DNA from: a virus
Lineage: Duplodnaviria > Heunggongvirae > Uroviricota > Caudoviricetes
IMG/VR virus record: IMGVR_UViG_2690316076_000004
Strand: one strand, 5' to 3'
DNA: 37,028 nt
The notes beneath the pieces are model-generated. The model saw only the letters and a program-made list of their open reading frames with translations, had not been told where the DNA came from and did not search any database. The position numbers and the translations under genes were made by a program. Below are positions 1-33,100 of the stretch, piece after piece. The first letter of the stretch is position 1, and every line of letters starts with the position of its first letter.

Positions 1-273
1 ATGAACATCGGTAAAGCAATCATCAACTACGCAGCACGTCGCAACATGGACATTACCTTGATTGGCGATGAGACCGTAGCGTTCTGGGAAGCGGATAACG
101 ATTGTGAATGGATGTTCTCCTACATGATTGGTAATGATGGTTTCCTCCACTTTAAAGGCAATGTGTATCTGCCGCAGGAGATTAAAGAAGAATTACCGGC
201 GTGCATCGATACAGACAAGAAGCTGAAAGAAGTAATCAACTTTATCGCTAAAGAGTTTATCAGCAAGAAGTAA
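1..273 (+). CDS. hypothetical protein (starts at window edge; possibly N-terminally truncated)
   Basis: 90-codon ORF beginning with ATG at position 1; no recognisable motif; first gene of a plus-strand run. Confidence 0.45.
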   Translation: MNIGKAIINYAARRNMDITLIGDETVAFWEADNDCEWMFSYMIGNDGFLHFKGNVYLPQEIKEELPACIDTDKKLKEVINFIAKEFISKK

Positions 274-285
274 GGCAGCAAAACA

Positions 286-672
286 ATGTTCAATATCATG
301 ATTCGTAAATTTGGTGAGATGACTTTCGAGAAAGCTGGTGTTGCGCGTACAGAAGAAGAAGCAATGGCCTTAGTTCTGGTAGCACTGAGATCATCACCTG
401 AGATTATCGACGCTGAATATGTTGCGGCTGAGGGTGAGATTAAAGAGATTAAAGCGGTAGCTAAGGAATTAGGTGTTAAAGGTTTCCGTAAGCTGAAACT
501 ATCCCGCGAGACTTATGTCATTGGACAGCAAGGACAATACCTAGATGAGAATAGCGCGATTGTCCTACTGAATAAGATCACCCGCTATGGTTTCCAGATT
601 GAGCAATATAAAACGTGTTTCGAATTATACGAAAAAGGTTTGCTGGATACTCTGACCATCGTTCGCGCTTAA
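286..672 (+). CDS. hypothetical protein
   Basis: 128-aa ORF with AAGG RBS upstream; followed by a hairpin/T-tract. Confidence 0.55.
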   Translation: MFNIMIRKFGEMTFEKAGVARTEEEAMALVLVALRSSPEIIDAEYVAAEGEIKEIKAVAKELGVKGFRKLKLSRETYVIGQQGQYLDENSAIVLLNKITRYGFQIEQYKTCFELYEKGLLDTLTIVRA

Positions 673-686
673 TTAATTTCTAATTT

Positions 687-712
687 GGTGGGTGCAATTC
701 CCACCGCTTTTT
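687..712 (+). terminator. putative intrinsic terminator
   Basis: GGTGGG-N7-CCCACC stem followed by GCTTTTT. Confidence 0.5.
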
Positions 713-980
713 AAACTGGAGAATCAAACATGTTAGCTTTTATCTCATTCGTGGGAGGTAGTCTCACAACTATGATTAGTCTTTCTTGTCTTGTCGTTAG
801 TATGGGGTGAGCAATGAAACAATTTCATGATGGCATTTCATCTAAGACATTCAAGAAAGAATATAGCGGATTGTGTATTAACTGGATTGATTTGATTGGT
901 GCGGTTGTGTTTGGTCTGGTAATTAGCATCAATTTTTAACGATATAAATATATCGTAATTCATTCAAAGAGGATTCAATT

Positions 981-1322
981 ATGAAAAAGACTATCTACGC
1001 AATTATTGTTTCTGTGTGTGTTGGTGGCATCGGTGGATTTGTTTGTGGGTATGACTATTCCGATACTCAACATCAAGAGACTATCCGGTCAAATAAGGCC
1101 GAGATTAAGGATCTGAATCAGGAGATTAGCCAGTTAGAAAATGCTCTCTCACTCAAAGACAGTGAATATAGCGAGGTTTATGCAGATAAACAAAAATATT
1201 GGAAAGAGAAAGATAATCTCGTTGTTTACGGGATGAAATTGTGTAAGAGCATGAAGGACGAGCGCAGTTGTTTAATGGAACTTGCCCTTAAAGGTAACGT
1301 GACCATCGACTTCAAAGACTAA
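981..1322 (+). CDS. membrane-anchored coiled-coil protein (i-spanin-like or superinfection-exclusion-like)
   Basis: N-terminal hydrophobic helix (IYAIIVSVCVGGIGGFVCG) then coiled-coil-type region; AAGAGGA RBS. Confidence 0.55.
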   Translation: MKKTIYAIIVSVCVGGIGGFVCGYDYSDTQHQETIRSNKAEIKDLNQEISQLENALSLKDSEYSEVYADKQKYWKEKDNLVVYGMKLCKSMKDERSCLMELALKGNVTIDFKD

Positions 1323-1351
1323 TTAATTCAAATAACAAAGAGGATTCTATT

Positions 1352-1597
1352 ATGAAAAAGATTATCGCTGGTATCGTTCTTGCTCTGGGTTTGGTTGGTG
1401 CTGCAAATGCCGAACAATATGTACAGGGTGATAGTGTCAAGCGTGCTGCCGTTGCACCTTCTTTAAATCAACTGTGTACTGAATTAGCACAGGTTGCCGG
1501 AGTTGGTGACGATGACGACTTTATTACTGCGTGTGTATGGAGTCATATCGAGGATATTAATAAACGTGATGCAAAACTAACTGGAAAGAAATATTAA
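1352..1597 (+). CDS. small secreted protein with signal peptide
   Basis: MKKIIAGIVLALGLVGAANA-E signal-peptide pattern with AxA site; 3 Cys in mature part; no lipobox Cys; same leader/RBS as the 981 gene. Confidence 0.55.
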   Translation: MKKIIAGIVLALGLVGAANAEQYVQGDSVKRAAVAPSLNQLCTELAQVAGVGDDDDFITACVWSHIEDINKRDAKLTGKKY

Positions 1598-1613
1598 TGA
1601 CTTACTAACCAAT

Positions 1614-1653
1614 GCCCCTATCGTTATAATACGCGGTAGGGGCGTTTTTGTTT
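1614..1653 (+). terminator. putative intrinsic terminator
   Basis: GCCCCTA...TAGGGGC stem followed by GTTTTTGTTT. Confidence 0.5.
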
Positions 1654-1662
1654 GGAAATGGT

Positions 1663-3342
1663 ATGAAAACTAAACTGTATTCGTATATTCGCTTCTCGTC
1701 TATGCGTCAGAATGATGGTTCGAGTTATGAACGACAAATCAGGATGGCGAGAGAGGTTGCGGCAAAGTATGACCTTGAACTGGTAAATGATTATCAGGAT
1801 CTGGGTGTATCTGCGTTTAAGGGTGCTAACTCTAAAACAGGGGCGCTATCTCGTTTCCTTGATGCAATTGGTAGATCCGTTCCTGTTGGTAGCTGGCTAT
1901 TCATTGAAAACTTGGACCGCTTATCCCGTGCCGATATTGTCAGTGCGCAGGAGTTATTCCTTTCAATCATCCGTAGGGGGATAACCATTGTTACTGGCAT
2001 GGATAACAAGATCTACTCGCTGGATACTGTTACCGCTAACCCGATGGACCTGATGTTCTCCATCCTTTTATTCATCCGTGGTAATGAGGAAAGCCAGACT
2101 AAGCGCAATCGTACTAACTCAAGCGCACTGATTAAGATTAAAGCTCATCAAGAAAATCCACAAAATCCGGCAGTGGCAATCGAGGAAGTTGGAAAGAATA
2201 TGTGGTGGACTGATACCACTTCCGGTTATGTGTTGCCTCATCCTACATACTTCCCTGTTGTTCAGGAGATTGTGGAATTACGGAAGAATGGACGTTCAAC
2301 CGCCGAAATACTGGATCACCTTAACGAGACATATACACCGCCACCAGCAGTAAGCAACAAGAAGCATTCAAAATGGTCACGGGCAATGGTTGAAAGGTTG
2401 TTCCATACCCGCGCTTTGATTGGTATCAAGGAAGTCTCTGTAGATGGTGTTAACTATGAGTTAAAGGATTATTACCCTCGTGTTATTGATGATGCTACGT
2501 TCTATCACCTTAAGAAAAATATTGGTGCTAGAGCATGGAACTTTGGAGACAAGGAAGAAGTTAAACCGATCCCCCTGCTTAGTGGTATTGGCCTATTGAA
2601 ATGTGATCATTGCGGTTGCGCTATGGTTAAAGTGAAGGGAACGAACAAACGTTCTGACCAGTATCGTTATACATGTGATGCGACCCGTTCACGTAGACTT
2701 GATTGCGAGCATCCAAACTGGAGTTTTCGAGGTGATCAATTAGAGAAAGCTGTATTGCAATTGCTGGCTGATAAAATATGGATTGCTGAGGACAAGGCTA
2801 ATCCGGTTCCGGCGTTGAAAGTACAGGTTGATGAAATATCACGCAAGATTGATAACCTGATTGCCCTTTCTGCTATGACAGGAGCAACGAAGGAGCTAGC
2901 CGATCAGATTACTACCCTCAATAGCGAGCGTGAAACACTCTACAATCAGATCAAGATGGCAGAAGAGGAAATGTATTCTGTGGACTCTCAAGGCTGGGAG
3001 AAGCTCGCAGAATTTGATTTAGAAGATGTTTATAACGAGGAACGACTAAAGGTCCGGTTTAAGATTAAGCAAGCTCTAAAGCGGATCGGGTGTAGCAGGA
3101 TTGACAGAAACAAAAACTTGTTTGTACTGGAATACATCGATGGAAAAACCCAGAGAGTTGTAATAGAAAATTCAAGAGGAACGAGGAAAGGCCGGATCTT
3201 CATTGATTTGAAGACTATCAATGATAGGCAGATTCTGGAGAGCAACGGGCTTGTTCTGCATCCATGTTTAGACATGCTGACAGATAAGAACTGGAAACCA
3301 GAAGAGGAAATACCAGGTCCATTACAGGAATTTGGAATTTAA
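1663..3342 (+). CDS. large serine recombinase (resolvase/integrase family)
   Basis: N-terminal resolvase catalytic pattern (YSYIRFSS...Q), recombinase domain, Cys-rich zinc ribbon (CDHCGC...CDATRSRRLDCEH), C-terminal coiled-coil; track start at 1648 is TTG, ATG at 1663 preferred. Confidence 0.85.
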   Translation: MKTKLYSYIRFSSMRQNDGSSYERQIRMAREVAAKYDLELVNDYQDLGVSAFKGANSKTGALSRFLDAIGRSVPVGSWLFIENLDRLSRADIVSAQELFLSIIRRGITIVTGMDNKIYSLDTVTANPMDLMFSILLFIRGNEESQTKRNRTNSSALIKIKAHQENPQNPAVAIEEVGKNMWWTDTTSGYVLPHPTYFPVVQEIVELRKNGRSTAEILDHLNETYTPPPAVSNKKHSKWSRAMVERLFHTRALIGIKEVSVDGVNYELKDYYPRVIDDATFYHLKKNIGARAWNFGDKEEVKPIPLLSGIGLLKCDHCGCAMVKVKGTNKRSDQYRYTCDATRSRRLDCEHPNWSFRGDQLEKAVLQLLADKIWIAEDKANPVPALKVQVDEISRKIDNLIALSAMTGATKELADQITTLNSERETLYNQIKMAEEEMYSVDSQGWEKLAEFDLEDVYNEERLKVRFKIKQALKRIGCSRIDRNKNLFVLEYIDGKTQRVVIENSRGTRKGRIFIDLKTINDRQILESNGLVLHPCLDMLTDKNWKPEEEIPGPLQEFGI

Positions 3343-3376
3343 GCGGCCTAAATCGACGTATAACGAGCTAAAACAG

Positions 3377-3405
3377 TTAAGGGGTACATCCGTACCCCTT
3401 TTTAA
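3377..3405. terminator. intrinsic terminator between convergent genes
   Basis: GGGGTAC-ATCC-GTACCCC stem followed by TTTTTAATTT. Confidence 0.65.
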
Positions 3406-3415
3406 TTTAATTGCA

Positions 3416-4414
3416 TTAAAGAGCCTCTAAAGGGCTTAAATCGAGTTCTAAGTCTTCCGGTGTTAAATCAGCTAACGGTGCATTCATCCACTGCGATAAA
3501 TCTCGTTCTATGTCTTCATCACTAATGTAGTTGTTCAGATTGATTGCGTTGGTATCATCAAAATACATTGGCTTAGATGGGTTGATGTGGATGTATTCAT
3601 TGATGAATGATTTAACATCTTTCAGCTTGCTAATCGGTAGCGTTTCTGTGAATCCGCTATTCATTACCTTACGTGGGATTTTCTTGCCCTGAATATTCTT
3701 TTTAATCCCCATTTCTAAATCACCAGCTTTCCATCCAATGTTAAACAAATGTGAGCATTCAAAGGTGATTTTCTCGCTGGTGTGCTTCTGGTGTTCTCTT
3801 ACCCGTTGCATCGGATCTTTGCGAGTGGTAATTCCATATTTGAAAAACTTCTCGCCAACACGAATTAGATAAAAGTGCATAGGGCGCTGTGCAAACTTGT
3901 TTCTGATAACCTGTTTTCTACCATTCTGAATTGATTTAAGTACACCCCTAACCAAAGGGCATGTTAACCCGCCTTGTCTGCGGTTATTGTGTAAATCACC
4001 TTTCTTGTGAATCTTTCCGTGGCACTTACAACGAAGAATTAGTTTAGTGTCAACACCCTGATAAGGTTCAGCCAGACCTAACACATCCCACCCTATCGGC
4101 TTGTAGAACTTGCGAGCGTTTTCTAAGTGTTCTTCTTCGGTAAATCTAAACTTCTTCTTAGGCGGTGATACTCTATCTTTGCCAGTAAACTGACCAGTTA
4201 GAACATGACTAATACATGGCGTTTTAACCTTTCCATTAACTTCTATGCAAACTTTAGTGTTCTGGAATGGTTTCTTTACAGGAAGCACAAAACCACTGTA
4301 TAACCATCCATGCGCTTGACAAACTTTAATGATTCTGGTTTCATATTCGACCGGAGGGGTCGCACGTTTGCTTTTTGCGGTAAATTCGATATCCTTTGCT
4401 AAAGTAGTATTCAT
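3416..4414 (-). CDS. T5orf172 (GIY-YIG-like) domain protein with Cys/His cluster; putative homing-endonuclease-like DNA-binding protein
   Basis: segment HFYLIRVGEKFFKYGITTR...MQRVREH resembles T5orf172/GIY-YIG-like fold; CKCHGKIHKKGDLH...CPL Cys/His cluster; family assignment from memory. Confidence 0.5.
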   Translation of the reverse strand: MNTTLAKDIEFTAKSKRATPPVEYETRIIKVCQAHGWLYSGFVLPVKKPFQNTKVCIEVNGKVKTPCISHVLTGQFTGKDRVSPPKKKFRFTEEEHLENARKFYKPIGWDVLGLAEPYQGVDTKLILRCKCHGKIHKKGDLHNNRRQGGLTCPLVRGVLKSIQNGRKQVIRNKFAQRPMHFYLIRVGEKFFKYGITTRKDPMQRVREHQKHTSEKITFECSHLFNIGWKAGDLEMGIKKNIQGKKIPRKVMNSGFTETLPISKLKDVKSFINEYIHINPSKPMYFDDTNAINLNNYISDEDIERDLSQWMNAPLADLTPEDLELDLSPLEAL

Positions 4415-4450
4415 AGTAGTGAATCCTCAATAAAATAATATTCACTACTA
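4415..4450 (-). promoter_or_regulatory. 5'-UTR stem-loop masking the translation initiation region of the 3416-4414 gene
   Basis: perfect inverted repeat AGTAGTGAAT (4415-4424) / ATTCACTACT (4440-4449); GAGG RBS lies in the loop next to the 3' arm, ATG directly after the stem. Confidence 0.5.
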
Positions 4451-4460
4451 TTTATAAGAA

Positions 4461-4862
4461 TTAATTATTGTAGTTTTGGAAACCAGTAAGATCGCAAAAT
4501 GAATCAGTGTCATGTGCTGGGGAACGATGTTCTGCTTCGTCAGAGAAAATGTTGGCTACCGGAGATTCTACTTTAACTTCCGGTGCTTCTTCAACATCTG
4601 ACTTAACTTCTTCGACCACTGGTTCAACTGCTGGAGATTCTTCTTTTGTTTCTTCAATGACGATCTCAGGTTCTTTCATTGCTTCAACCAGAGACGGATC
4701 AACTTCGTCGAATACCACTTTATCATCTGCGGTATATTTGTCTATAATGAAAAAATGGTCAGAAATATAGCTAACGTCGCCAGCATATTCTAACAAAAAA
4801 GCGCCCACTAGAGGCGCTTTTGTTTTATCCATTCCACCGTGATTTTTTTGATCTGGAATCAA
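4461..4862 (-). CDS. acidic low-complexity protein (E/V/P-rich); start uncertain
   Basis: track start at 4862 is TTG and the first 12 codons overlap the endolysin 3' end and a terminator hairpin; in-frame ATGs at 4832 and about 4679; poor RBS. Confidence 0.3.
   Translation of the reverse strand: MIPDQKNHGGMDKTKAPLVGAFLLEYAGDVSYISDHFFIIDKYTADDKVVFDEVDPSLVEAMKEPEIVIEETKEESPAVEPVVEEVKSDVEEAPEVKVESPVANIFSDEAEHRSPAHDTDSFCDLTGFQNYNN
4797..4821. terminator. bidirectional intrinsic terminator after endolysin gene
   Basis: AAAA-GCGCC-N7-GGCGC-TTTT with T-tracts on both strands, immediately 3' of the endolysin stop. Confidence 0.6.
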
Positions 4863-5178
4863 TATGCGTAAAGGTTTTATATTTTCCTAAGCCGTATTGA
4901 GTAGGATATTTCCCATCAAGATAAGCATGAACAATATCAGGCGAGACACCCTTGATAACAATGTCAGCCGCGCGGCCTCGAACGTGATAGCTATTGGCTG
5001 CCCCGCCTACATTCTTGTTATGAGTCGGGCAACGGTTGCCACTGTTAATAATCACTGGTTTACCGAAGTGCTCTCGTACATCCTCAAGAATCACCAGTAA
5101 TTCAGCGTCGATTGTATCATAATCACATTTTCCGCATTTACATTTAAATTCCTTGCGAGAAAAATGCTTACTTAACAT
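4825..5178 (-). CDS. endolysin, peptidase M15 family (L-alanyl-D-glutamate peptidase-like)
   Basis: zinc-ligand pattern SYHVRGRAAD ... THID typical of M15 phage peptidases; AAGGGGG RBS. Confidence 0.7.
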   Translation of the reverse strand: MLSKHFSRKEFKCKCGKCDYDTIDAELLVILEDVREHFGKPVIINSGNRCPTHNKNVGGAANSYHVRGRAADIVIKGVSPDIVHAYLDGKYPTQYGLGKYKTFTHIDSRSKKSRWNG

Positions 5179-5187
5179 ATTACCCCC

Positions 5188-5535
5188 TTAGATCATTTCG
5201 AAGATATAACCAATAAAGCGCATACCCTTGATATAATAAGGAGCAGTGCCTACACACACCGCGCGTGCATCGCCCAGACAGTTAAAGCTATAAGGATTAA
5301 CCACATCAACTTCTTGTCCGACACGAAAACGATACTTAGGACGTTTAGCCAATGTAGCGACACAAAACACGGTCCCTTTTTCATGATCGCGGATACATTC
5401 TTTATATTGTTTATGTTTAACTCTCTTCGCCTCAAAATCATGTGTCATAGATTCTGGGCTAATGCCATTAATAAAAATACCGGAAAGCTGATCGACCGGA
5501 TAAGTAGGAAATTCAGTGAAAATATTTTTAGCCAT
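5188..5535 (-). CDS. hypothetical protein
   Basis: 115-aa ORF with GGGGG RBS; no recognisable motif. Confidence 0.55.
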   Translation of the reverse strand: MAKNIFTEFPTYPVDQLSGIFINGISPESMTHDFEAKRVKHKQYKECIRDHEKGTVFCVATLAKRPKYRFRVGQEVDVVNPYSFNCLGDARAVCVGTAPYYIKGMRFIGYIFEMI

Positions 5536-5573
5536 GTTATACCCCCATAAGTTTCTATGAGGGTATTTATGGA

Positions 5574-6257
5574 TTAAACGTATTTCATGCGCGATTTAAT
5601 GTGCTTATTGATGTTTTCAAGCATCATTGCTTCGTTGCTTTCCCACGATCCTAGCGTCGAATAACGAGTAGAAATTTTATCCGATTTAACGGCAACAATT
5701 CGCTTGCTCTGTTTCTGTATGCGTTTCTCTAAGCGACGTTTTGCCACCGCCGATCCATTCCTAGCGCGTTTGGTTCGGGATTTCTTAGGCTTGTACTTCT
5801 TCATGATAAAAGTCCCTTCCTTGTTCTCTACCTTGATGAAGTTGCCGTTTTCGAGGTTACGCATCATCTTACCGCCTTTGATGGCCTTAATGTTCCCGTG
5901 GGCGTCTAAGACCTTACCGTTGGCGATTGGAACTAGCTTATTGATTTTGCCCCCATCGAAATAGTGTTTCAGATAGTCGTCCTGACTGCCGATCTTCTTA
6001 TCCTTATCCCTTGCGCCCTTGATGAAGATTTGGTGTCTCGTCCCTGATCGGTTCTTGTAGTTGGTATTACCTACAGCTTGCTGAGTCCAGCGAGTAGGTC
6101 TATCAACATTCTTGTTAATCTTCTTCTGGAGTGCTCTGGAAGCAAAGATCGCCCCTTCCCCTAGTGCCCTTTCGAATGTATCGGTTGCCTTTTCAGACCA
6201 TTGCCGTAACGCTTTCTTAGTCCTTAGAGCGTTTCGTTTATTGGTACTGGTTGCCAT
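5574..6257 (-). CDS. hypothetical basic (Lys/Arg-rich) protein
   Basis: 227-aa ORF with AGGGGG RBS; strongly basic composition. Confidence 0.55.
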   Translation of the reverse strand: MATSTNKRNALRTKKALRQWSEKATDTFERALGEGAIFASRALQKKINKNVDRPTRWTQQAVGNTNYKNRSGTRHQIFIKGARDKDKKIGSQDDYLKHYFDGGKINKLVPIANGKVLDAHGNIKAIKGGKMMRNLENGNFIKVENKEGTFIMKKYKPKKSRTKRARNGSAVAKRRLEKRIQKQSKRIVAVKSDKISTRYSTLGSWESNEAMMLENINKHIKSRMKYV

Positions 6258-6832: not shown

Positions 6833-9800
6833 TTAAGAAACAGAAATACCAGTAGCGGCTTTCTTAGTTACCATTACCGTTAGATCGCTGATATATGCAC
6901 TTGGGTTATAGTTGTTAACGCCCTTACAGTAAACTTCAAAAGTCATTGTTACTGCCCCGTGTCCGGCTGGCATGTCAATAACTCCACTGTACATACAGCC
7001 AGAAGTTGCAGTGCGATCATATAGAACACCACCATTTTTCTTAACGATTAGTCGGCAAGTATCCCAATGATCGCTACTTTCGCCACGACGAACAGACCCG
7101 TTATGATGAATCGCTGGAATCACTATTTGGCGATCGAATGGATGATCATCTTCGACCCTTACAGTGATTGCACCATCAGGCCAGTTTGGTTGGCGATGTG
7201 GGAAACTCCTACCAACCACTTTCACGAAGTCACCACGCACCTGATTAGCATCAAGCATACCCAAAATGCGGCAACTTGAATTAATCGTTACGTTGTTCAT
7301 TTCGCCGGAATCAGCCACCAAATGACCACGAATATTAGCGTGTCTAAAATGACAAGTGCCATCTTTGCCGATATACCATCCATCGTTACCATTCCAGTTA
7401 TAAGACTGGATATAGTTACCAATTTTAGCATTATCGATAGAGCCATCAATGATATGACCTGTTCCGATCTGTGCGTGTTGGATGTGAGCGCCGTTAATCT
7501 GGGCTGTGCCGATCTTAGCCGTGGTGATACTAGCATCACTAATCTGGGCTGTGCCAATTGCAGCATTACGAATCATCGCATTATCAAGATAAACTTTGTT
7601 ATCTTCGATGCCAAACGGACAAACTTCTGATCCGTCTTGTGGAGCTACCGCGATTTTATCAGCCGTAAAGATGATTCTTGTCGGTTCTGCCGGATCATTG
7701 GTTGCGCTCATATGAATACCAGCCACGCGACCATCTGCATTAACTGCCAGATTATATTTGCTGTTAATGGTTCCCTTCAAAGCATCGATTTTTACATCTG
7801 CTTCCTGATTCACACCAGCAATCTTGCCATCCATTTCTACCCGAACTTGATCAATCTTACTTGCGCTTGCTGCCTCACTGGTAGCAATTGCTTGTTTCAG
7901 GGTAGTAGCGGATGCGCTAACTTCTTTGGTGATATCGCCTTTCAGTTCAGCTTTAACCTGATCAATCTTAGTTGCGCTGGCTTGCTCACTGGTAGCAATC
8001 AGACTCTTGAGAGTATCGGCTGAGGCTTGGACCGTCTGCCCTGTCTCGGTAGTAATCTGTTTATGCATTGCATCAATCTTAGCATCGGCATTAGCGCCAG
8101 CTTGAGCAATAGCATCCGCGATGGTTTCATCTAAGCGATCTTGTAAACCAATCAGGTCTTCCAGTGCTTCTTTGTCCTGATCGTCCCAGCTAATGGTAGA
8201 TTTCATTTGCATGAAATACGGTTCAGACCAAACAGCATCATCCATACCGAAAATATCATAGTGAGCACCACGGATATAATAATCACCGTCAGCCAAATCA
8301 AAGGAAGTATGACTAACGCTATTGGTAGTCACTGCCCTTGCATCGGAGAAAGTATTATCGGTTGCATACTGGATGATTGACCCTGCATAGTCATGTTCTA
8401 CGTCATCCGCCCAGCTAACAAACGCAGTATTAAAGCCACCACGCGCACTAAAACCTTTCATCGGCTTATGTTGTGGGTTGATAGCCACTAAACGCGCTGG
8501 GGCGCTCTCTGAGTTGTTATAGCCCTTGACTGATACTTCTACCGTCAATTCACGGGAAAGGCCGTTAAACTGGTTCATATCAAGCGTATAAGTCCATGAT
8601 TCAGGATCGCGGGTACGGTACTGAATAGACTTACCAGCCTTGTTAGTTACCTTGATAATGTATGCTTCAAACAGGTCACTAAACTTGTTAGCTTCACCGT
8701 TGATCATCACATCTAATTGTTGCTGATTTTCCCATTCGATAATCAGATCATTGCCTTCGAAAGTACCAGGGGAGCTACCCTGATTTTTGATTCGAATAAC
8801 CGGAGTCGGCAATTCATAGGTAACAGTAGGATTCTGGTTAACCAGTTCCACCCATTCGGAACGAGCAATAATACCGAAAGCACAAACGCGGTAATCGTAG
8901 GAGCGATCTTTTGCCAGTGCATTGATATTGAAAATTTGCTGTGAAGTCTGTCCCAGCTTAATCCAGTTAGGTGATCCACTCACACGATAATCAATCTGGA
9001 AACCGTAGCGGTTGAAATCTTCCGGTGCATCCCATGTCAAAGTTACGTTTTTACCGTGGATGGTTTCACCAGTTGCCTTAATTCTGAAATTAGTAGGCTT
9101 CTGTACTGTCATTGAATCCGGTAAACCACTTGGTCGGTTATCTGGGTTAGCCGCATAGTTTAGGTCAGTATAAACCTGAGAATTATATTCTGTAGCGGTG
9201 ATAGTCATCATCCCAGCAATACCAGAATCAATAGAGCGATCAATTGCAGTAATACGCCAAAGTGAATTATTCAGTTTTAATTCATCATAGGTTACGCTGA
9301 TAACGTCCCATACTTCGGCGGTGAATGCGTCAGTAGTCATAAAGCTGATAACCTGAGTGATACGAGATTTATTTCGTTCTACACTCGCAAGTTTATCAAT
9401 CTGGGCTTTAGACTTAACAAAACGATATTCAATATCTTTAGCGATAATTCGACCATCTTGACGAATAGTAGCATCGTTTTCAGCATCAGCCGGATAACGT
9501 AGCATTTGCTCTGAATAGTCGATTGATGGTTCTTGATACATCGCGTTAATGGTATTGAAATAACCGTTAGTGCCACCTGTTTTCAGTGATACTTTTCCCA
9601 TCATGATATTGTCTTCATTGAAGGTATGCTTAACAATATCAGGAGCATCCAGTTTCAGCGTAATACGTCCAAAGGATTCGAACATCACCCCGCCGAAAGT
9701 CTGCATAAGGCTAGTTAAGTTCTCTTTAAAGCTGGCGTTCGGATCACATGCACCGTTGGAATGTAAATCCATCTGGCGTACTTGTTTACGCACTTTCAGG

Positions 9801-17829: not shown

Positions 17830-20800
17830 TTAACCAAATAATTTTGCTTCAATAGCAGCAAGACGTTCACGAAGGATTTTATTTTCTTCGCTCATTTCTT
17901 GAATTGCTTTGATTAAAAGCGCGTTCACTGCGGAGTTTGAAATTGTTAAAATCTCTTCTGGGTTATCAAGACCACCAATTTTTGCGGTTTTAACAGCTTC
18001 CGGTAATACCTCTTGTAAATCCTGTGCGATAATACCAATCTCATGACCTATAACTTCTCGGTCATTAAGAGATTTAACTTTATCGTAGGTTTTAACTTTG
18101 AGTTTATTTACCTTATCTACCGCATTTTCTTCGTAGTCTTCAACATTAATTTTCAGACGACGGTCGGAACGAATATACACATCGTTAAAGTTACCATTAC
18201 CTGGAGAATAGAAAGTGCCATCATGATGGAACTCGTAGACAGCTTGAGGATGACCAGCAGCAGGTGAGTTTTCCGCAGATCCAACACGAATAATTGCTTG
18301 TCCCCAATTGTTGGGGACACGACGCATACCAAAATCGACGGCAGTTGTATACCCTTGATTGGTTATTAAACTTCTTCCTTTGATAATCGGATAATAACAG
18401 TCCTGTGAAACATAACCATGATCGACGAATATTGGAGCTTCTAATGACCATTGGTCATTCCATGCGCCAGATTGGCTAGCAGTCCAACGTTCACCGTGAA
18501 CATAGAATCGAACGTTATTGACATGAGTCATTTCGACGCCTTTCGGACTTAGCGCGATATCCCCCGCATTTGTAATGTTTATGGCAGCATTAGTAGCATA
18601 GCTATAGAACGCTAATCCATTATCAGCGCCACCTTTACCGATATACCAGTTGTTATTATCAGCACAAGTACCCAACAAATATATAGACGAATCTCCACTT
18701 TCGGCATTCATGATGATTGCGTCAGATCCACGATTAACTTTCAGTTTCCCGAAAAATGTGTTTTTAATGGTATTATCACCCAATCGTTCAAATTCTGCGA
18801 AAAATCCTTTTGAGTCACGAAGACTTAAAACGTTATTTCGACCTGTATTGCTTGCCCCCCAATGGACGAGTTCCATATAGTCCATAGATTGACGAGAACC
18901 AGCTTTAAACAAAAGGTTGTCTTCGAGACGAGTGCTACCATCAATCCCAAGATGTAAACACCGAGCGGTCGTTGTGCCCCCTAGATCCAATCCACCCTCA
19001 GCGAAATCATAACTAAATGGTCTACGATTATTCCAATTTCCAAAAGAATCTTTTAAATCGGTAGTCAGTATATGGAAACCAGTACCATCATTTCTAAAAA
19101 TTAAGCCATAATTGCCACCTTTAACAGCCAAACGCGCATTTTCAGATAATGCAACTTCGCTATTCATTACAATTTTCTGGCCTTTACCACCAGTAATATG
19201 TAATTCACCATCTTCAATCAGGTTTATCGAGTTTTGACCGTTATCGTTCCACCAAATAAAATCTTTGGTCTGACCATCACCGAAGCCAAACCAGCCATTA
19301 CGAACATCTGTACCAGTGCGATAATCAAAGAAGTTTAAATGACATGATTCATTTGGACCACGACGAAAATCAATTGCTGAGTTTCCACCTAAACCGCCAT
19401 CAATGGTCATTCTACGAATATGCAAACCGGATGCAGCCGACAGCAATAATTGTTGGTTTACATCATCGTATCCAGTAGCAAGACGATAATTCTGATCATC
19501 TACAGTTTCATGCCAGATAGTAGCGGGTGCGGAACTACGGAAGCGACGCAACTTTTTCTTAGCATTTGTTTGTTGTTCGTTCAAATGCTCAATGTCATAT
19601 TGGCCTTGATGGTTTCCACCAAAATTTAACGTTCCACGGTTGCTAAAGTTATTGAATGATGAAATGTTAAGAGCATCAAAAATTTCATCTGCAACAGGTT
19701 TTTCACCACCCAGATATTCAGGAGTATCCAACAGGTTTAAAGAAACACCACCGGACGAAACTTGATATTCTGCTAAAACAAATCCTGTATGTGCACCGTA
19801 GTAAGCGTAAAGATCGTAATTATCGCCATCGGTAGGAATTGCGCAAAAATATTGTTCGTAATACCAAATGCTATAATAAGCATTGAATACAACACCTTTC
19901 GGGCTATTGTTGCCGCAACGGATCACCAGTTCAATAACATTGGCTTGTCCATTCTGTCCGACGTTATAACCGTTACCACCAACCAAACGAATCTTAGCGG
20001 TGCGACCGTGTTGTTGTGGCATTGTCAAAGTGCCTAGTTTAAACCAACCGCCCTCGATACCAAAATTAAGCGTCTTCTGGAACAGTCGGTCAATTTCTGC
20101 TTTCGAATATGCGCCAATTTCGGCAGGAGTAGGTTTATCACCTTCATGATACATGCGGTGAGAATATGCCAAATGACCCAATTCATCATAGCCGTATGTT
20201 CTTACCGTAGCATGTGGATTAGACCCATAAGTGAACTCAAAACCACGAGCATGATTAACACCGGATGGATGTGGAACATGCAAGATCATAGCAATATGAT
20301 CAGCTAGATCATTGGTACGGAATGCACCAAAGTAATCAAGATTACGAGCACCTGGATCATCAAAATAGTTTGCGGTCTTAGACAGCAAATAACCATCAGT
20401 ATAAGTGTTTACGTGTTTTTTGATGTACTTACCGTCACTAGATCCATCGGCTGCATCAATACGGCTTTCTAAACGTGCAAGTTCGGAATCGGTGTAAGAC
20501 TTGTTATTGTCAACTTTGCTATGAATTGCTGAATTTTTGGCTTCAACATCACGGGTTAATGCTGCGACGTTATCCGCTGCCTCTTGCTTATTGGCTGCAA
20601 TCACACCAGTAAGGTTATTGTAGGTGTCAGTTAACTGATTTTCCGCATAGGCTTTATTTGCTGCGATAGTCCGATCAGTCTCGGCCTTAATCAAATCAAC
20701 CTTGTCATTGATTGCTTTGTCATTGCTTGCGATGGTTGCATCGGTACGGGATTTAATATCATCAACTTTTTTATTGATGCGGGTGTCCAGTTCCTGTGTT

Positions 20801-21243
20801 GCTACAGCAGCCGCATTTTTATTAGCGTTGATAGTATCCGACAATTCAGCTTTAACACCAGCAAGGTCGGAAGCAGCTTTATTTTTATTGGCATCGATTG
20901 TCGCGTCGGTTTCGCGTTTAATTACATCAACTTTATTGTTAATTTCTACGTGATTTGCTGCGATGGTTGCATCAGTAGTTTGTTTAATTTCATCTACTTT
21001 AGCGTGAATATTGCGGTCATTTACTGCAATTGTACTATCCAGTTCTTGTTTGTTAGCATCAACTTTAGATTCTAGTGCCGCGTGAGTTTCAGGAGAAACA
21101 GAGATTTGAACTACTTCATGATCTCGGTCTTTGGTAAAAATAACATGGTCTTTAAGGTTGATTGCTACCTCACCGACCTGTAATTGTTCCGGCGTTGGTT
21201 TTTTGCCAGAAACATTTGTTCGTTTAAATTGGATCGACTGCAT
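17830..21243 (-). CDS. side tail fibre with C-terminal intramolecular chaperone (peptidase S74-type) domain
   Basis: C-terminal ~112 aa (SDRRLKINVEDY...AIQEMSEENKILRERLAAIEAKL) matches S74 chaperone-domain pattern, encoded at about 17833-18168; fibre-like repeats in N-terminal third; GAGGTGA RBS. Confidence 0.85.
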   Translation of the reverse strand: MQSIQFKRTNVSGKKPTPEQLQVGEVAINLKDHVIFTKDRDHEVVQISVSPETHAALESKVDANKQELDSTIAVNDRNIHAKVDEIKQTTDATIAANHVEINNKVDVIKRETDATIDANKNKAASDLAGVKAELSDTINANKNAAAVATQELDTRINKKVDDIKSRTDATIASNDKAINDKVDLIKAETDRTIAANKAYAENQLTDTYNNLTGVIAANKQEAADNVAALTRDVEAKNSAIHSKVDNNKSYTDSELARLESRIDAADGSSDGKYIKKHVNTYTDGYLLSKTANYFDDPGARNLDYFGAFRTNDLADHIAMILHVPHPSGVNHARGFEFTYGSNPHATVRTYGYDELGHLAYSHRMYHEGDKPTPAEIGAYSKAEIDRLFQKTLNFGIEGGWFKLGTLTMPQQHGRTAKIRLVGGNGYNVGQNGQANVIELVIRCGNNSPKGVVFNAYYSIWYYEQYFCAIPTDGDNYDLYAYYGAHTGFVLAEYQVSSGGVSLNLLDTPEYLGGEKPVADEIFDALNISSFNNFSNRGTLNFGGNHQGQYDIEHLNEQQTNAKKKLRRFRSSAPATIWHETVDDQNYRLATGYDDVNQQLLLSAASGLHIRRMTIDGGLGGNSAIDFRRGPNESCHLNFFDYRTGTDVRNGWFGFGDGQTKDFIWWNDNGQNSINLIEDGELHITGGKGQKIVMNSEVALSENARLAVKGGNYGLIFRNDGTGFHILTTDLKDSFGNWNNRRPFSYDFAEGGLDLGGTTTARCLHLGIDGSTRLEDNLLFKAGSRQSMDYMELVHWGASNTGRNNVLSLRDSKGFFAEFERLGDNTIKNTFFGKLKVNRGSDAIIMNAESGDSSIYLLGTCADNNNWYIGKGGADNGLAFYSYATNAAINITNAGDIALSPKGVEMTHVNNVRFYVHGERWTASQSGAWNDQWSLEAPIFVDHGYVSQDCYYPIIKGRSLITNQGYTTAVDFGMRRVPNNWGQAIIRVGSAENSPAAGHPQAVYEFHHDGTFYSPGNGNFNDVYIRSDRRLKINVEDYEENAVDKVNKLKVKTYDKVKSLNDREVIGHEIGIIAQDLQEVLPEAVKTAKIGGLDNPEEILTISNSAVNALLIKAIQEMSEENKILRERLAAIEAKLFG

Positions 21244-27191: not shown

Positions 27192-29099
27192 TTAGAACGA
27201 TGTTACCCAGCTACGGCCTCTATTTGGGCGTCTGGCGATGTTTTGACGTTGCGGTCGTGTGATTGGCTTAGTTTCTTCTATTTGCTCGTCAGATTGCGAT
27301 TTAGGAGCTTCTACGGATTCTTCGACAACACGGTTTAAGCTGTCTTTCATTGCAATGAGTTTATCCCATGACATTTTTGAAAGAACGTAGCGAGAAGCAG
27401 CATAGCTATAAACCAGACAGTCGAGAGCCTCGTTTCGGGTACTACCTGGATTTTTCACCCAACGCACGCCAGTAGTAGTACGCTTGATGGATTCACTCAA
27501 AAGCTGATCGAGATAATCATCAGGAACGGTTTCTGATATTTCTAAGCCAATATGAGGATTATCTTTCAGGTTTCTAACCAGCATTTCACGAACAGCGGAT
27601 TTCCCAACGTTAACACCCAGCATAAGCAATTCATGACCACCTGTACGGGTAGGTTTAACCGGAATCACTGGAGCATTACCAGATGAACTACCTTTGATAG
27701 CGTGTAGGTTCTTCCACTTGCCGCAAATACGGTATCCGGCTTGAGTGAATCGACCGTTCGATGTATCAAGGAAACTGGCGAGCATTGGTACACGTTCACC
27801 ATTAACGTTATAGAATTTGGTTTTCTTGAAGTTAACCAGACGATCCCAAACAGGTGATTCATATCGTTCACAGTTATGATCGTAAAAGCTGCGGTGATCC
27901 AGAATGTAAACCTTATCTTTCGCTACACCTAAGATGGTAGATTCTGCGCGGTCCAATTGCTGGTCAATTCCTGAGCACAAGAAAATCACGTCATCAGGGA
28001 TATTCTCGATAGAAACATCTGTTTTGAGTTGTTCCAGTTCATTTGCTTCTACTGCCGTGTCCTGATCGTCGTATACCTTGCCTAACACGGTGTTATAAAA
28101 TGATTGTAAATCAAAGGATTGCCACGCATGGCTAAAATCAACAACACAAGCGCGGATCGTGCTGAAAGGTGAATACAGACGGCTAATCCAGAATCCAGCT
28201 ACTTCACTTTCTCTCGTTACTCGCCATTCACCAGCAGCCACCGCCCTGATCCGCTCTCCTTCTGTCCATGCGTTCTTACAGTGGGGGCAAATATAACGAG
28301 CGGTATCAGGATCGGGTAAGTTCTTACCATCGATGTTACGCCATTCAAATTGAACGTTTTCCCACTCGATCACCTGGTGTTCCCCGCAATGAGGACACGG
28401 AACAAAAAACATACGCATATCGCTTGATAACCATTGCTGGTTAATGCTTCCGAGCTTACTGGTCGGGGTGCTGGATACGACTAATCGACCTTCATCGCCA
28501 AAGGTAGTTAAACGGTTAGCAGCCAGTGCCACCGGATCACCTTCTTCTGAGGCTGTAGCAGCATCGATTTCGTCAAGTAATCCAACCTTTGCGGTCTTAC
28601 CGCGTAGGGTTGATGGACTGGTAAGCGATACCATGTAAAGGAAGTGATTCGTTTTTAGCTGTAGCTGGTTATTGTTGTTAACCGCATTGCGATCATTCTT
28701 GTCTGTAACAACGTCTTTTAATGCATCACATGCTTCGATAGACGGTCGGATCTTACCAGCGAGATATTGAGACATTTCTTTAGCGGTTGATTGTCCGATA
28801 ATCATATTGCATGGATCGTTAGCCATCTGGTTAAACAGGATACCGTTCAGGATGGTAGTCTTTCCGATCTGTGCACTGGTCATCAGGACATACTTTTTCT
28901 TGTTCTCAAGGAAAGGTGCATCAATCATGCCTTTTTGGAATGACAACAATTTAACTTTATCCCCAGCTTGAGGACCATCTACCAGCACCATATTCGCTTC
29001 GCACCATTCAGACGGAAGGAGTTTAGGCGGTGGAGTGATATATTTTGCGGCATTTTTAAGAATCTTTTTTAATTTGGCCTTGTTCGAAATCAGTTTCAT
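27192..29099 (-). CDS. terminase large subunit, lambda gpA-like
   Basis: [26 protein letters not shown] (Walker A-like), [21 protein letters not shown] all mirror remembered gpA motifs; ATG at 29099 with GAGGG RBS preferred over track start 29174. Confidence 0.93.
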
Positions 29100-29142
29100 G
29101 TAATTACCCTCATTACGAAATATGAAGGTATTTATTAAATTG

Positions 29143-29170
29143 TTGATATTTTGATAAATACGGGTATTAA
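29143..29170 (+). promoter_or_regulatory. candidate sigma70-type promoter in divergent terL/HTH-gene intergenic region
   Basis: TTGATA (29143-29148), 16-nt spacer, TATTAA (29165-29170), about 15 nt upstream of the 29185 ATG. Confidence 0.35.
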
Positions 29171-29184
29171 TCAAAGGGGGTTGT

Positions 29185-29787
29185 ATGCTAATTAATCAGC
29201 AAGAAAGAGATGAATTAGAATTAGCCTTGTCTTGTACCGATCATGAATATCGTTTGCCAGTTAAGCACCATCACAAGAAGACTGATTACACAACATCCGG
29301 CTTTAGTCGCGAGGAAGCGAAGCAAATTTTAATAGAGTTGTATCGCGATCAGGGATATACAGATATTCACAACTTCTTTAAGAAGCACCGAACATCACAG
29401 ACAGAGTTCCAGAGAGTCCGTGAATGGTTTGATTTTGATATCAAGCGTTATTATCGAGTGGATGACGGTCCGATCTATCGGTTGCAGTGGACACCGATCA
29501 GGGAAGTGTTGAAACAGAAGAGACTAAATCACGCTATTACACGCTATCGTAACGTGGCTTTTAAGAAAGGATATGGTGATACAAGGGAACTATTCGTTGA
29601 ACTCGCTAACGTGCGATATAGCCATTATTACAGGAATCCTAAAGAGTTCTTCGAAGTGCTGCGCAAGGTTGATATAAGTCGGGGTACATACTATTCACGG
29701 TTGAAGAAGTACGGGATTAAGGCAGAGTTCTTTATGAGTATTGACGATGGAGAACTTTTTCCGATAAAATGTAAGTCCTCTAAATAA
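29185..29787 (+). CDS. HTH DNA-binding protein (C-terminal resolvase-type helix-turn-helix)
   Basis: C-terminal [15 protein letters not shown] resembles Hin/resolvase-type HTH; AAGGGGG RBS. Confidence 0.5.
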
Positions 29788-29815
29788 AGGTGAACATTCA
29801 CTTTAATTTGGAGAA

Positions 29816-30046
29816 ATGACTATGACTACTAAAGCTACTCGCGGTCGTCCTTGCCGTTTTGATCGTGAACAACTGGCAGCGATTGTAAAAGCGTACTATC
29901 AAGCACCGAAAGGTAAAGCCGAAAAAGAGCAAGTATTGAGTGAACACGGTATTTCAATCGCTCAATTCTACAAATCACTCCATAAAGTTGATTTGAAATT
30001 CTTTGTTCAGGTTGACGGTGAAATGGTAGAAGCAACAGGAATTTGA
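29816..30046 (+). CDS. small HTH protein, paralog of 33578-33757
   Basis: RGRPCRFDREQL ... GISIAQFYKSL parallels MARPVKFTREMI ... GIDRSGFYKLM in the 33578 gene; GGAG RBS. Confidence 0.5.
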   Translation: MTMTTKATRGRPCRFDREQLAAIVKAYYQAPKGKAEKEQVLSEHGISIAQFYKSLHKVDLKFFVQVDGEMVEATGI

Positions 30047-30053
30047 TTCTCTA

Positions 30054-30082
30054 GGCCAATCCTTCGGGGTTGGCCTTTTTTA
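30054..30082 (+). terminator. intrinsic terminator
   Basis: GGCCAATCC-TTCG-GGGTTGGCC stem followed by TTTTTTA. Confidence 0.8.
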
Positions 30083-30086
30083 TATC

Positions 30087-30314
30087 CGCTCAAAACTGAG
30101 CACATCTCTAAGTCATTGATTCTTCCGATGAGTCCAGATTTGGACTGATCTATAGATGCCCTCAAAACTGAGGAGATGTGCTTAAAGTTCAGCGTATCTA
30201 TCTAAGTGGTTGATTCTTTCGAGAAATTCAAACTTGAATCAATCGGCGCAAAACTGCGCTCATCTCTAACCTATTGATTCTTCCGATAAATCCAAATCTG
30301 GATGCATCAGATAC
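30087..30314. repeat. three-unit degenerate repeat (~70-85 bp each) with IHF-consensus motifs and short palindromes
   Basis: units start CAAAACTG(A/C)G; each contains ATTGATTCTT whose complement fits WATCAANNNNTTR, followed by GTCCAGATTTGGAC / ATTCAAACTTGAAT / ATCCAAATCTGGAT near-palindromes. Confidence 0.7.
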
Positions 30315-30344
30315 AAAAAAGCCCAGCGCAATTATGCGCTGGGC
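30314..30344 (-). terminator. intrinsic terminator after Rha-like gene
   Basis: perfect 10-bp stem GCCCAGCGCA-ATTA-TGCGCTGGGC followed on minus strand by TTTTTTGT. Confidence 0.85.
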
Positions 30345-30350
30345 GATTAA

Positions 30351-31184
30351 TCAGATCCCAAAATCAACAAGGGAAATTACGTTACCTGATTCACGAATCT
30401 GTTTAGCAGCTTTGTTTTGAATCAGAATAGTGTTATTTGGCTGCGGCAGTTTAAGAGTTGCTTTCTGTTCTTCTTCCAAAACGCCCAATTCAACCAGCAC
30501 CGGAAGAACATCAACAGTAAACTCAAGCTGGTAATGAGCATTCATGCGGCAGAAAGACAGAGAAGAGTCATTAGCAACATACCCACACGGCTTGTTATTT
30601 TCATCATAGACGCGCTCAATGTAGCCAGCAGTACGTAAGGCCGTCAGTGCTTGTTTAACCTTCGTAGCGCCCTTTTTAGCGCCTAACAGACGTGTCATAG
30701 AATGGCTATCTACGGATTTGCGAATGTGTAGCTCAATCAGTTTTTTATTTTTGCGTTTTTCATCTAATGCCAGTTCGATCCAGTCGGTTTCTTCAAAGTC
30801 CGCATACGGGTTAACAGGAGTATTATTGGCGGTTTTCAGTTTCTCTTCCAGATAATTCCAACGGTCAACCAGTTGGCGAGTAAATTCCGGTACGTTTTGA
30901 GCAATCAAGACAATCGAATCTAAGCGACCTTGCTCACCCTCAAACACATAATCTTTAACAGTAACAGCAAACCCTAAGTTATTGATTTTCTCGAAATTCT
31001 GCGTTGCAGGTTTTCGGATAACTTGGCGTTCAACCAGTCGGTTCATAGAAGTTTCAAGGTTTGAAAAACGAACTCCAATAAGGTCGGCAATTTCACGAAG
31101 AGTCATTTTTGCAACTTCGTTATCAACAACCAGAGACACGGAAGCAGTTTTAACAGCAGTATTCATAGTAGTAACAGTATTCAT
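30351..31184 (-). CDS. Rha/ORF6N-type phage regulatory protein (antirepressor-like)
   Basis: N-terminal MTLREIADLIGVRFSNLETSMNRL resembles Rha/ORF6N DNA-binding pattern; family call from memory. Confidence 0.5.
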   Translation of the reverse strand: MNTVTTMNTAVKTASVSLVVDNEVAKMTLREIADLIGVRFSNLETSMNRLVERQVIRKPATQNFEKINNLGFAVTVKDYVFEGEQGRLDSIVLIAQNVPEFTRQLVDRWNYLEEKLKTANNTPVNPYADFEETDWIELALDEKRKNKKLIELHIRKSVDSHSMTRLLGAKKGATKVKQALTALRTAGYIERVYDENNKPCGYVANDSSLSFCRMNAHYQLEFTVDVLPVLVELGVLEEEQKATLKLPQPNNTILIQNKAAKQIRESGNVISLVDFGI

Positions 31185-31273
31185 AGTAAAAATTCCCCTT
31201 AAACGGTTTAATGATTTGGTCCTCCTAGTTCCGGCATCACCACCGGAACAATTTTATTTATAATAGAAATTTA

Positions 31274-31606
31274 TTACCAATCGATTTCTACTTGGTCTTC
31301 TTCATAATAAGGAATCGCATATTCATAACGCCAGTTTTCGATGATTTCACGTTCTTCATTAGTAAGAAGGTGATTGCTAACTGGAGTTGCATTGTGATTA
31401 CCAGCTTCGAATTGCTCGCGAACTTCCAGCATTGCATGAATACCAGTTAAGGACATCAGATCAAACGGAACATGCATACTACGGGAGATAGTTTCACGGG
31501 ATACACCCCAATCATTTTCTACATGGCTAGGGGTTACAGAAACGGTTTTGCCGGAGATTTTAACAGTCCAGTCATACAGGGATTTAGTGATGGTAAATTC
31601 TTTCAT
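31274..31606 (-). CDS. hypothetical protein
   Basis: 110-aa ORF with AAGAGGA RBS; preceded by a strong promoter-like element. Confidence 0.55.
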   Translation of the reverse strand: MKEFTITKSLYDWTVKISGKTVSVTPSHVENDWGVSRETISRSMHVPFDLMSLTGIHAMLEVREQFEAGNHNATPVSNHLLTNEEREIIENWRYEYAIPYYEEDQVEIDW

Positions 31607-31662
31607 GTTACATCCTCTTTACAAATCTAGGTCAAATAGGTTCAAAGTTGTCAAGTGCGATA

Positions 31663-31704: not shown

Positions 31705-31726
31705 GACGCCAAAGGGTTGACCTAAC

Positions 31727-33010: not shown

Positions 33011-33100
33011 TTCCCATCAAATATTTTGATAGAAAATTCCTGTATATTATTTAATCAAAAAATCACCAAAAAGCGGCGTAAGTTAATGATTTAAAAAGAA

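Follow-up and report, generated by a model that had tools for sequence, protein, structure and literature searches.

The stretch of DNA considered here, IMG/VR record IMGVR_UViG_2690316076_000004 (Caudoviricetes), comprises 37,028 nucleotides and is referred to as the window; near its left end lies a gene, here called int, for a large serine recombinase. A preliminary description, made from the sequence alone, had placed such a gene at 1606-3405 as an insulated single-gene unit, and had considered it as the integrase of a temperate phage, as a DNA invertase or as a resolvase. We are highly confident that the product of int is the integrase of a siphovirus-like, temperate prophage. Prophage junctions in relatives strongly support that this protein (Int) inserted the prophage family into the Escherichia coli gene ycdX at a TT crossover.

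The integrase gene and its product

The open reading frame (ORF) of int covers positions 1663-3342 of the + strand, starts with ATG and specifies a protein of 559 aa with the N-terminus MKTKLYSYIRFSS... The program-made ORF list gives a longer, TTG-started frame (1648-3342, 564 aa); the ATG at 1663 is the start in every close homologue and in the RefSeq annotation of related genomes. The following parts can be distinguished in the protein:

1663-2157, + strand: catalytic domain, about residues 1-165, with the Ser12 codon at 1696-1698
2170-2562, + strand: recombinase domain, about residues 170-300 (Pfam, alignments, model)
From 2575, + strand: zinc-ribbon domain, from about residue 305 (Pfam, alignments, model)
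2806-2976, + strand: coiled coil inserted in the zinc-ribbon domain, residues 382-438 (model)
About residues 451-559, + strand: C-terminal beta-rich extension (model)

The order of Pfam domains in Int is Resolvase (residues 6-153, E 9e-15), Recombinase (198-287, 4e-9) and Zn_ribbon_recom (310-368, 1e-10), all over their cut-offs; PF00239 reaches 55 bits (cut-off 23), and PF07508 and PF13408 also exceed theirs. In PHROGs the protein matches phrog_95, 'integrase' (4e-63). Together with an alignment of homologues, these matches bear out the earlier placing of a large serine recombinase gene at this locus. For the alignment, Int was compared first with 21 and then with 41 homologues, with identities down to 27% (42 sequences in the set). 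In these 42 homologues R10 is invariant and S12 is kept in at least 90%, both in the sequence YIRFS, which represents the nucleophile-bearing motif Y-x-R-x-S of large serine recombinases. D85, R86 and R89 (in ENLDRLSR) are invariant as well, as are E143, S144, K147 and R150, and the zinc-ribbon cysteines C314, C317, C338 and C348.

When searched as a single sequence, Int is far from every solved structure, whereas a profile made from the alignment reaches the integrases of SPbeta (E 2e-18), phiC31, TP901-1 and Bxb1. An AlphaFold2 model (mean pLDDT 81.7) consists, from the N- to the C-terminus, of the catalytic domain, a long helix (127-164), a mixed alpha/beta domain, a small beta-rich domain, two long antiparallel helices (382-438) and a further beta-rich part. 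The top 19 matches of a Foldseek search of this model against the PDB are all large serine integrases (E 3e-17 to 9e-7), the best being those of SPbeta, phiC31, Bxb1 and LI; solved integrases of full length match at E 3e-17 to 3e-9. Int does not belong to the XisF-type developmental excision recombinases, as it scores 52 bits with NF041201 against an equivalog cut-off of 375. Int is thus an intact large serine recombinase with its catalytic residues in place. An inactive or truncated protein, which the preliminary description had regarded as adverse to its reading, was not found: Ser12 is present, the 559 aa represent the full length and the fold is that of integrases. The enzyme is probably catalytically active and would use the strand-exchange chemistry of its family.

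Attachment sites and crossover

Of 5,426 complete E. coli genomes, 60 contain a match to the leftmost 4 kb of the window, with 88-98% identity and in every case in the chromosome. A plasmid or phage-plasmid lifestyle was rejected, with no match of this part among 72,556 plasmids. In GN4741 the element is flanked by two fragments of the zinc phosphatase gene ycdX, one C-terminal and one N-terminal. The fragments are about 35 kb apart, the gene content between them matches that of the window, and ycdX is split at about codon 134 of 245.

The crossover was mapped by aligning the GN4741 junctions with the uninterrupted ycdX of K-12. At the left attachment (att) site, attL, host sequence is found as far as ...CATATTTGGGATT, followed by CCCTAATATCATGTACCCACAATAAC..., and at attR the prophage sequence ...TTATTGGGGGTTGACTACGTTCGGG gives way to host sequence from TTTCCGGGATGG... 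onwards. The host-matching stretches of the two junctions overlap by exactly 2 bases, TT. A 2-bp TT overlap was again obtained when the occupied hicB site of EC416 was compared with an empty one, and in 39EVA, where the insertion is in codB, the overlap is TTACC, with TT at the equivalent place of a recognisably homologous attP. An overlap of 2 bases without a longer core is the trace of the 2-bp staggered cut made by serine recombinases. The rebuilt attP is TTAGTTATTGGGGGTTGACTACGTTCGGG-TT-CCCTAATATCATGTACCCACAAT, and the predicted attP, when written out, reads GGGGTTGACTACGTTCGGG-TT-CCCTAATATCATGTACCC. It is an imperfect palindrome in which 18 of 28 positions are symmetric around TT (8-11 of 28 in the attB sites), with the blocks GTTATTG-GGG (distal) and TT-GGG (proximal).

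These sites come from relatives with an Int identical or 99.6% identical to that of the window (99.6% in GN4741 and UTME-9, both with insertions in ycdX), the junctions themselves lying outside the window. The exact Int protein of the window is recorded in 130 blocks of the assembly collection, and in all eight loci displayed it is found downstream of csgDEFG-ycdZ-ycdY, beside ycdX'. Seven of these eight also contain the first 60 bases of the window and have the same attL, which upstream of window position 1 reads ...TTTGGGATT (TTTCGGATT in two of the seven loci), then CCCTAATATCATGTACCCACAATAACACGAGGGGGTACAACA. In relatives the P' arm of attP occupies the 42 bases directly left of window position 1, and the P arm stops about 87 bases past the last base of the window, as judged from a 94% identical relative that shares the last gene.

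The preliminary description was correct in stating that no attP-like palindrome is visible in the window, and the reason is that the att half-sites fall just outside a window that was trimmed to gene boundaries. Its advice to look for prophage junctions in bacterial genomes proved fruitful, since both attP and attB, with the TT crossover in ycdX, were defined in this way. Less productive was its proposal that the repeat regions at 30087-30314 and 32186-32760 might act as recombination substrates. The att arms, each with up to 3 mismatches allowed, do not occur anywhere in the window, and the repeat regions were rejected as att-type substrates because they contain no arm-like sequence.

Targets and integrase alleles

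In the complete E. coli genomes, attL junctions were found in ycdX (about 27), hicB (31) and codB (2). The ycdX junctions comprise 12 full-length matches and 15 cases that share the junction and have a different first gene. Salmonella prophages with an Int that is 71-75% identical occupy the same nucleotide position of the Salmonella ycdX gene, and the allele that sits in codB is a 75% identical Int. When the enzymes were divided into a catalytic domain (residues 1-165) and a DNA-binding region (residues 170-370), the identity of the latter region to that of the window Int was related to the target as follows:

98-100% identical: target ycdX
90.5% identical: target ycdX
87.6% identical: target ycdX
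84% identical: target hicB
62% identical: target codB

Two alleles of the catalytic domain, one window-like and one 81% identical, are each found joined to either type of DNA-binding region, which makes int a mosaic gene. To judge from these comparisons, the target tracks the DNA-binding region, whichever catalytic allele is attached to it. The double lysogen BS74R-D carries a ycdX prophage with a ycdX-type region and a hicB prophage with a hicB-type region.

The ycdX-type and hicB-type enzymes are separated by 16 positions, which fall within residues 203-349 and belong without exception to the recombinase and zinc-ribbon domains. At each of these, four E. coli ycdX-type enzymes share a residue that occurs in none of 49 hicB-type sequences, which were grouped by their DNA-binding region, with attB checked directly for six of the alleles. 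Going from ycdX-type to hicB-type, the changes are I203V, K208R, E222A, V230A, N232H, K234R, K237N, I275L, T279E, N286S, A289V, W292C, I309V, D332N, D347A/E and E349V. Six of the ycdX-type residues (I203, E222, N232, N286, W292, D347) have also been retained by the ycdX-type enzymes of Salmonella. The attP sites of the two types differ in a few bases only, and the attB sites in ycdX and hicB have 19 of 41 flanking positions in common (hand count). It is an attractive thought, although we hold it to be somewhat short of probable, that these alleles form a natural retargeting series in which at most 16 substitutions would move Int from the ycdX attB to the hicB attB, with attP almost unchanged and the catalytic domain exchangeable. 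If these 16 residues suffice, they would provide a ready-made map of attB reading separate from attP reading, and the series would yield two orthogonal integrases for enteric bacteria. The combination of the same attP, different attB sites, 16 diagnostic residues, exchangeable catalytic domains and a double lysogen in which each allele occupies its own site could also help to explain how such enzymes choose their targets.

In the hicB-type relatives (L010 and L011, which represent E. coli EC416, and L049-L051) the insertion lies in the antitoxin gene hicB, near codon 102 of 138. It leaves the toxin gene hicA and the N-terminal part of hicB together and separates the C-terminal part of hicB.

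The window as a prophage

Besides int, the window contains genes for a lysis protein, a J-like tail tip, a tape measure protein, a T4-like distal fibre, a major tail protein, a fused protease-capsid protein, a portal protein and a TerL that resembles lambda gpA. The right part is formed by an early region of about 8 kb, with a TerS-like gene at the far end. According to PHROGs and family scans the structural module is complete. The window is bounded by the ATG of its first gene and the stop codon TGA of its last gene, from which it follows that it is a prophage trimmed to gene boundaries. There are 28 such trimmed proviruses in IMG/VR, and in all of these int is located 0.9-2.6 kb from a contig end or is cut by it. 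The window thus represents an almost whole temperate siphovirus-like prophage of about 37.2 kb, which settles that it is not a fragment of a lytic phage.

The earlier statement that no tyrosine integrase is present in the window was confirmed: every ORF of at least 250 aa was accounted for, and no other integrase of any kind is present in the element. Rfam and tRNA scans of the window gave no matches, and scans of the neighbouring genes for defence systems and NCBIfam families gave nothing over threshold. Among species-representative genomes the nearest relatives are just 40% identical and of no help for defining att sites.

Proposed mechanism and alternative explanations

The integrase role of Int is supported by the lack of any other integrase in the element and by the presence of junctions in ycdX beside this protein. 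Of the options considered earlier, that of a temperate phage with a serine integrase and a neighbouring attP has obtained strong support from the prophage junctions. In the mechanism that we propose, Int dimers would bind to an attP of about 50-55 bp, the imperfect palindrome around TT, and to attB inside ycdX. The synapsed sites would be cut through Ser12 with a 2-bp stagger at TT, after which the subunits rotate and the ends are religated, so that insertion of the phage splits ycdX. The non-palindromic TT would fix the orientation. The recombinase and zinc-ribbon domains would choose the target; alleles that differ in these domains sit in hicB or codB. Excision should need a directionality factor encoded by the phage.

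Several observations weigh against this explanation. The att half-sites were taken from relatives with the same protein and do not lie in the window. No close isolates of this type are present among 50,697 phage records, where T-even phages match in short patches only and the best TerL match is 43% identical and located in a 141-kb record, DCP80. An intact attP, which would be a sign of excised or virion DNA, was not found in IMG/VR (two patterns searched) or in JGI metagenomes (one pattern). Family scans of the window revealed no repressor, replication gene or directionality factor; for the last of these the scans were general and no search was aimed at identifying one, such factors sharing no family. 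It could be that the element is unusual, or defective in some hosts. A rival view holds that the gene is intact and the prophage a fixed, defective remnant, with Int having acted formerly and no longer mobilising the element, or being kept for another purpose. The missing intact attP, phage isolates, repressor and replication genes fit with this, as do the IS (insertion sequence) elements that some copies contain. Such a view is nevertheless improbable. The same nucleotide position is occupied in Salmonella as well as in many E. coli strains unrelated to one another, and two further sites are occupied by prophages that each have their own Int allele, so that many recent integration events are required. 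Moreover, Int is full-length and identical in those 130 assembly-collection blocks, and the structural module is complete.

Much less credible is that Int acts as a resolvase of multimers arising in phage replication or recombination while integration is carried out by something else. Its catalytic domain is of the resolvase family, and the YbcK-like genes that are its closest coliphage homologues (31.6%) lie far from att and are annotated as YbcK-like or hypothetical; the lambdoid phages that carry them integrate by other means. However, there is no other integrase in the element, the junctions have just 2 bp in common, a hallmark of serine recombinases, and the choice of target follows the DNA-binding domains of Int itself. 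A resolvase would be small, with a C-terminal helix-turn-helix, and would act on directly repeated sites in the phage. The size and architecture of Int are not those of Tn3/gamma-delta-type resolvases and lend no support to the resolvase option of the preliminary description; res motifs or direct repeats beside int were not searched for. With regard to a multi-subsite res site, it may be added that only 6 nt separate the T-tract of the hairpin upstream of int from the start codon.

That Int is an invertase that flips a phage segment, for example to switch host range through a tail fibre as Mu Gin and P1 Cin do, is the least likely explanation of all and very improbable: even though the element has two large fibre/tip genes (6833-10579 and 17830-21243) and there is a weak secondary match to phrog_125, 'DNA invertase', on the catalytic domain common to all serine recombinases, the protein has 559 aa with recombinase, zinc-ribbon and coiled-coil parts instead of about 190 aa with a C-terminal helix-turn-helix as in the small serine invertases (Hin, Gin, Cin, Pin), neither att arm is copied in the window, and the longest inverted repeats in the window (18-38 nt, 71-92% complementary) are scattered, with none bracketing the end of a fibre gene. 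The preliminary description, which had offered an invertase as an option, had itself seen no flanking inverted-repeat switch beside int, and indeed only short, weak and scattered pairs exist and no credible one. As an integrase, Int combines these features of the large serine group: the catalytic domain, the recombinase, zinc-ribbon and coiled-coil parts, the fold and att sites with a 2-bp crossover.

Relation to known systems

In the profile search (E 2e-18) as well as in the fold comparison (E 3e-17), Int is best matched by SprA (YokA) of the Bacillus subtilis phage SPbeta, which acts with the directionality factor SprB. SPbeta integrates in the host gene spsM and disrupts it. The two integrases are alike in the order of catalytic domain, recombinase domain and zinc ribbon with inserted coiled coil, but their identity is only 13-14% in a structural alignment, the host phylum differs, and Int is extended at its C-terminus by about 100 residues of beta-rich structure. 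No SprB-like factor was recognised in the window. The integrases of phiC31, Bxb1, TP901-1 and A118/LI are also similar in fold (E 2e-16 to 3e-9), and have in common with Int the 2-bp crossover and an attP that is an imperfect palindrome next to a less symmetric attB. Another shared feature is the catalytic motif Y-x-R-x-S, the serine of which is at position 12 in Int as in phiC31. In contrast, these enzymes have Gram-positive hosts, are 14-17% identical and use unrelated att sequences. Well-studied serine integrases mostly stem from Gram-positive hosts. Int is native to E. coli and Salmonella, and since sequence alone suffices to specify its attP and three attB sites, it could be put to a direct test as a tool.

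Among the nearest relatives in the phage database are gp1 of Burkholderia phage JC1 and the recombinases of Bcep22 and Bcep176, with 28-30% identity over 85-94% of the length. These phages differ from the prophage described here in being podoviruses and in their host, and the identity is low. JC1, of which the recombinase (28% identical to Int) is encoded at the genome end of the record (23-1651), is the nearest phage relative with experimental support: it integrates stably into rimO, and its site was mapped from the intergenic region beside the serine recombinase gene. For JC1 an 18-bp shared att core was reported, against 2 bp for the family of the window. The nearest coliphage homologues are the uncharacterised YbcK-like recombinases of lambdoid phages such as 4A7 and Perceval (31.6% identity over 81%), from which int differs in being the sole integrase gene of its element and located 1.7 kb from the junction.

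Full-text searches of the literature yielded no account of a prophage that has this enzyme and sits in ycdX, hicB or codB. The att arms and the Int N-terminus are absent from the supplement text of Durrant et al. (2022) in the form available, which may be incomplete, and the enzyme may be present in the database to which it belongs. The survey in that paper had already reported that close relatives can use different target genes. The enzyme is of an ordinary kind; this family is undescribed, and its close variants target different host genes.

Organization of the left arm

The left arm of the prophage consists of three terminator-delimited cassettes on the + strand (1-672, 981-1597 and int), and the int unit is followed by a convergent gene. 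The features are:

1-672, + strand: first cargo cassette, between the left prophage end and int, with ORFs 1-273 (90 aa) and 286-672 (128 aa)
686-706: terminator-like hairpin that ends the first cassette (terminator scan)
981-1597, + strand: second cargo cassette, with ORFs 981-1322 (113 aa) and 1352-1597 (81 aa), ended by the hairpin at 1611-1646
1611-1656, + strand: upstream intrinsic-terminator-like hairpin and T-tract, stem 1611-1646 (terminator scan, fold)
3379-3405, + strand: downstream intrinsic-terminator-like hairpin and TTTTT, stem 3379-3400 (terminator scan, fold)
3416-4414, - strand: convergent nuclease-like gene, 332 aa (phrog_681 'endonuclease', 4e-20)

The upstream hairpin, with its T-tract stopping 6 nt short of the int start codon as mentioned, has a folding free energy (dG) of -23.1 kcal/mol (z -3.8), and the downstream hairpin, positioned 37 nt past the int stop codon between int and the convergent gene, one of -14.5 kcal/mol (z -4.0). 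In neither case did any of 200 shuffled sequences fold equally well. Within positions 1-6000, 14 terminator-like sites were observed, as compared to 4.6 expected.

Hairpins on both sides of int are kept in relatives, including the Salmonella prophages with a 71-75% identical Int, and, regardless of the preceding gene, the sequence is unchanged from the outer 5' end of the upstream hairpin up to the start codon of int. In Salmonella the upstream hairpin is shorter, with the outer stem the same, and the downstream hairpin has the same stem and a different loop. An E. coli relative in which a nuclease-like gene is inserted upstream (L141) has an unrelated hairpin at the same place, and a terminator before int is therefore a feature that has been kept even when the hairpin changed. 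The downstream hairpin is absent only in L010, where the downstream gene is replaced. The stems show no co-variation, the changes being confined to loops and lengths, and for this reason the hairpins are supported by conservation and not by covariation. The bracketing of int by hairpin/T-tract elements, noticed in the preliminary description, is thus confirmed by fold statistics and conservation, and the concept of an insulated single-gene unit gains support from the terminator scan, the folds and the persistence of the hairpins amid changing neighbours. The strong upstream terminator would block read-through from the variable cargo genes, and the second would close the int unit.

A hint as to how int itself may be transcribed is that the loop of the upstream hairpin contains, at 1625-1630, a TATAAT without mismatch, which is also present in the loop of the Salmonella hairpin. 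A promoter with its -10 box in the terminator loop may drive int, a possibility that we regard as rather doubtful. A transcript starting a few bases past TATAAT would be without the 5' arm of the hairpin and would therefore escape termination. Evidence to the contrary is that the promoter scan did not report this candidate, that the -35 matches amount to 3 of 6 positions in E. coli and 4 of 6 in Salmonella (hand count), and that the different hairpin of L141 is without it.

The ORFs of the first cassette match only phrog_6147 and phrog_14908, both families without an assigned function. In the second cassette, the translations, when read by eye, show a hydrophobic N-terminal stretch in the 113-aa product and a signal-peptide-like N-terminus in the 81-aa product. 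This cassette is variable, since relatives with an identical Int carry there a 139-aa ORF, or the 81-aa ORF alone. The equivalent of the convergent gene 3416-4414 in the ycdX prophage of BS74R-D is annotated as a GIY-YIG nuclease. The gene is replaced or absent in L010 and L051; it marks the right edge of the int unit and is not part of the integration system.

Other observations on the element and its relatives

A second nuclease-like selfish gene, at 11045-11815 (- strand), is a phrog_314 homing endonuclease between tail genes; like the one at 3416-4414, such genes come and go among similar prophages. Within the ORF at 4461-4862 (- strand), a 256-bp patch at 4478-4735 is 97-98% identical to inh, the prohead protease inhibitor gene of RB49-like T-even phages, and as the surrounding DNA is unmatched, this points to recent exchange of the prophage with T-even phages, which are virulent. 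Positions 17547-20380, in the gene for the 1137-aa fibre (17830-21243, - strand), show 84% DNA identity to the gene for the distal long tail fibre of KFS-EC, a T-even phage: a siphovirus-like prophage carries here a T4-type receptor-binding fibre.

The early region (29185-37028, about 8 kb) contains a gene for a Rha/Ant-like regulator at 30351-31184 (- strand), and family scans recognised no repressor, replication protein or excision factor in it. Positions 32186-33870 are nearly without ORFs and include a 21-bp tandem repeat at 32827-32886. The products of 29816-30046 (+ strand) and 33563-33757 (+ strand), and the C-terminal part of that of 29185-29787 (+ strand), share a short motif, R-x-x-x-F/RF ... 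G-I ... -x-I, that was recognised by eye. The motif resembles a small helix-turn-helix. The three products look like paralogues, with no family match, and by size and position they are candidate regulators or candidates for the directionality factor. The TerS-like gene (35872-36426, - strand; phrog_57, 6e-11) lies about 7 kb from TerL (27192-29174, - strand) and about 0.7 kb from the attR junction.

In six related loci, three from Salmonella (L132-L134) and three from E. coli (L136, L137 and L141), the region 1.5-5 kb downstream of int contains UvsW-like helicase genes, accompanied in four loci (L132-L134 and L141) by UvsY-like genes. Genes for UvsW and UvsY are typical of the recombination-dependent replication of T4-type phages. 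The record with the best TerL match, PQ671644 ('Escherichia phage DCP80', 141 kb), is filed as a T-even phage and contains at 1-26000 a siphovirus-like structural module of about 25 kb with the gene order of the window, followed by T4-type genes of which some are duplicated (rIIA occurs twice); this record looks like a chimeric or mixed assembly.

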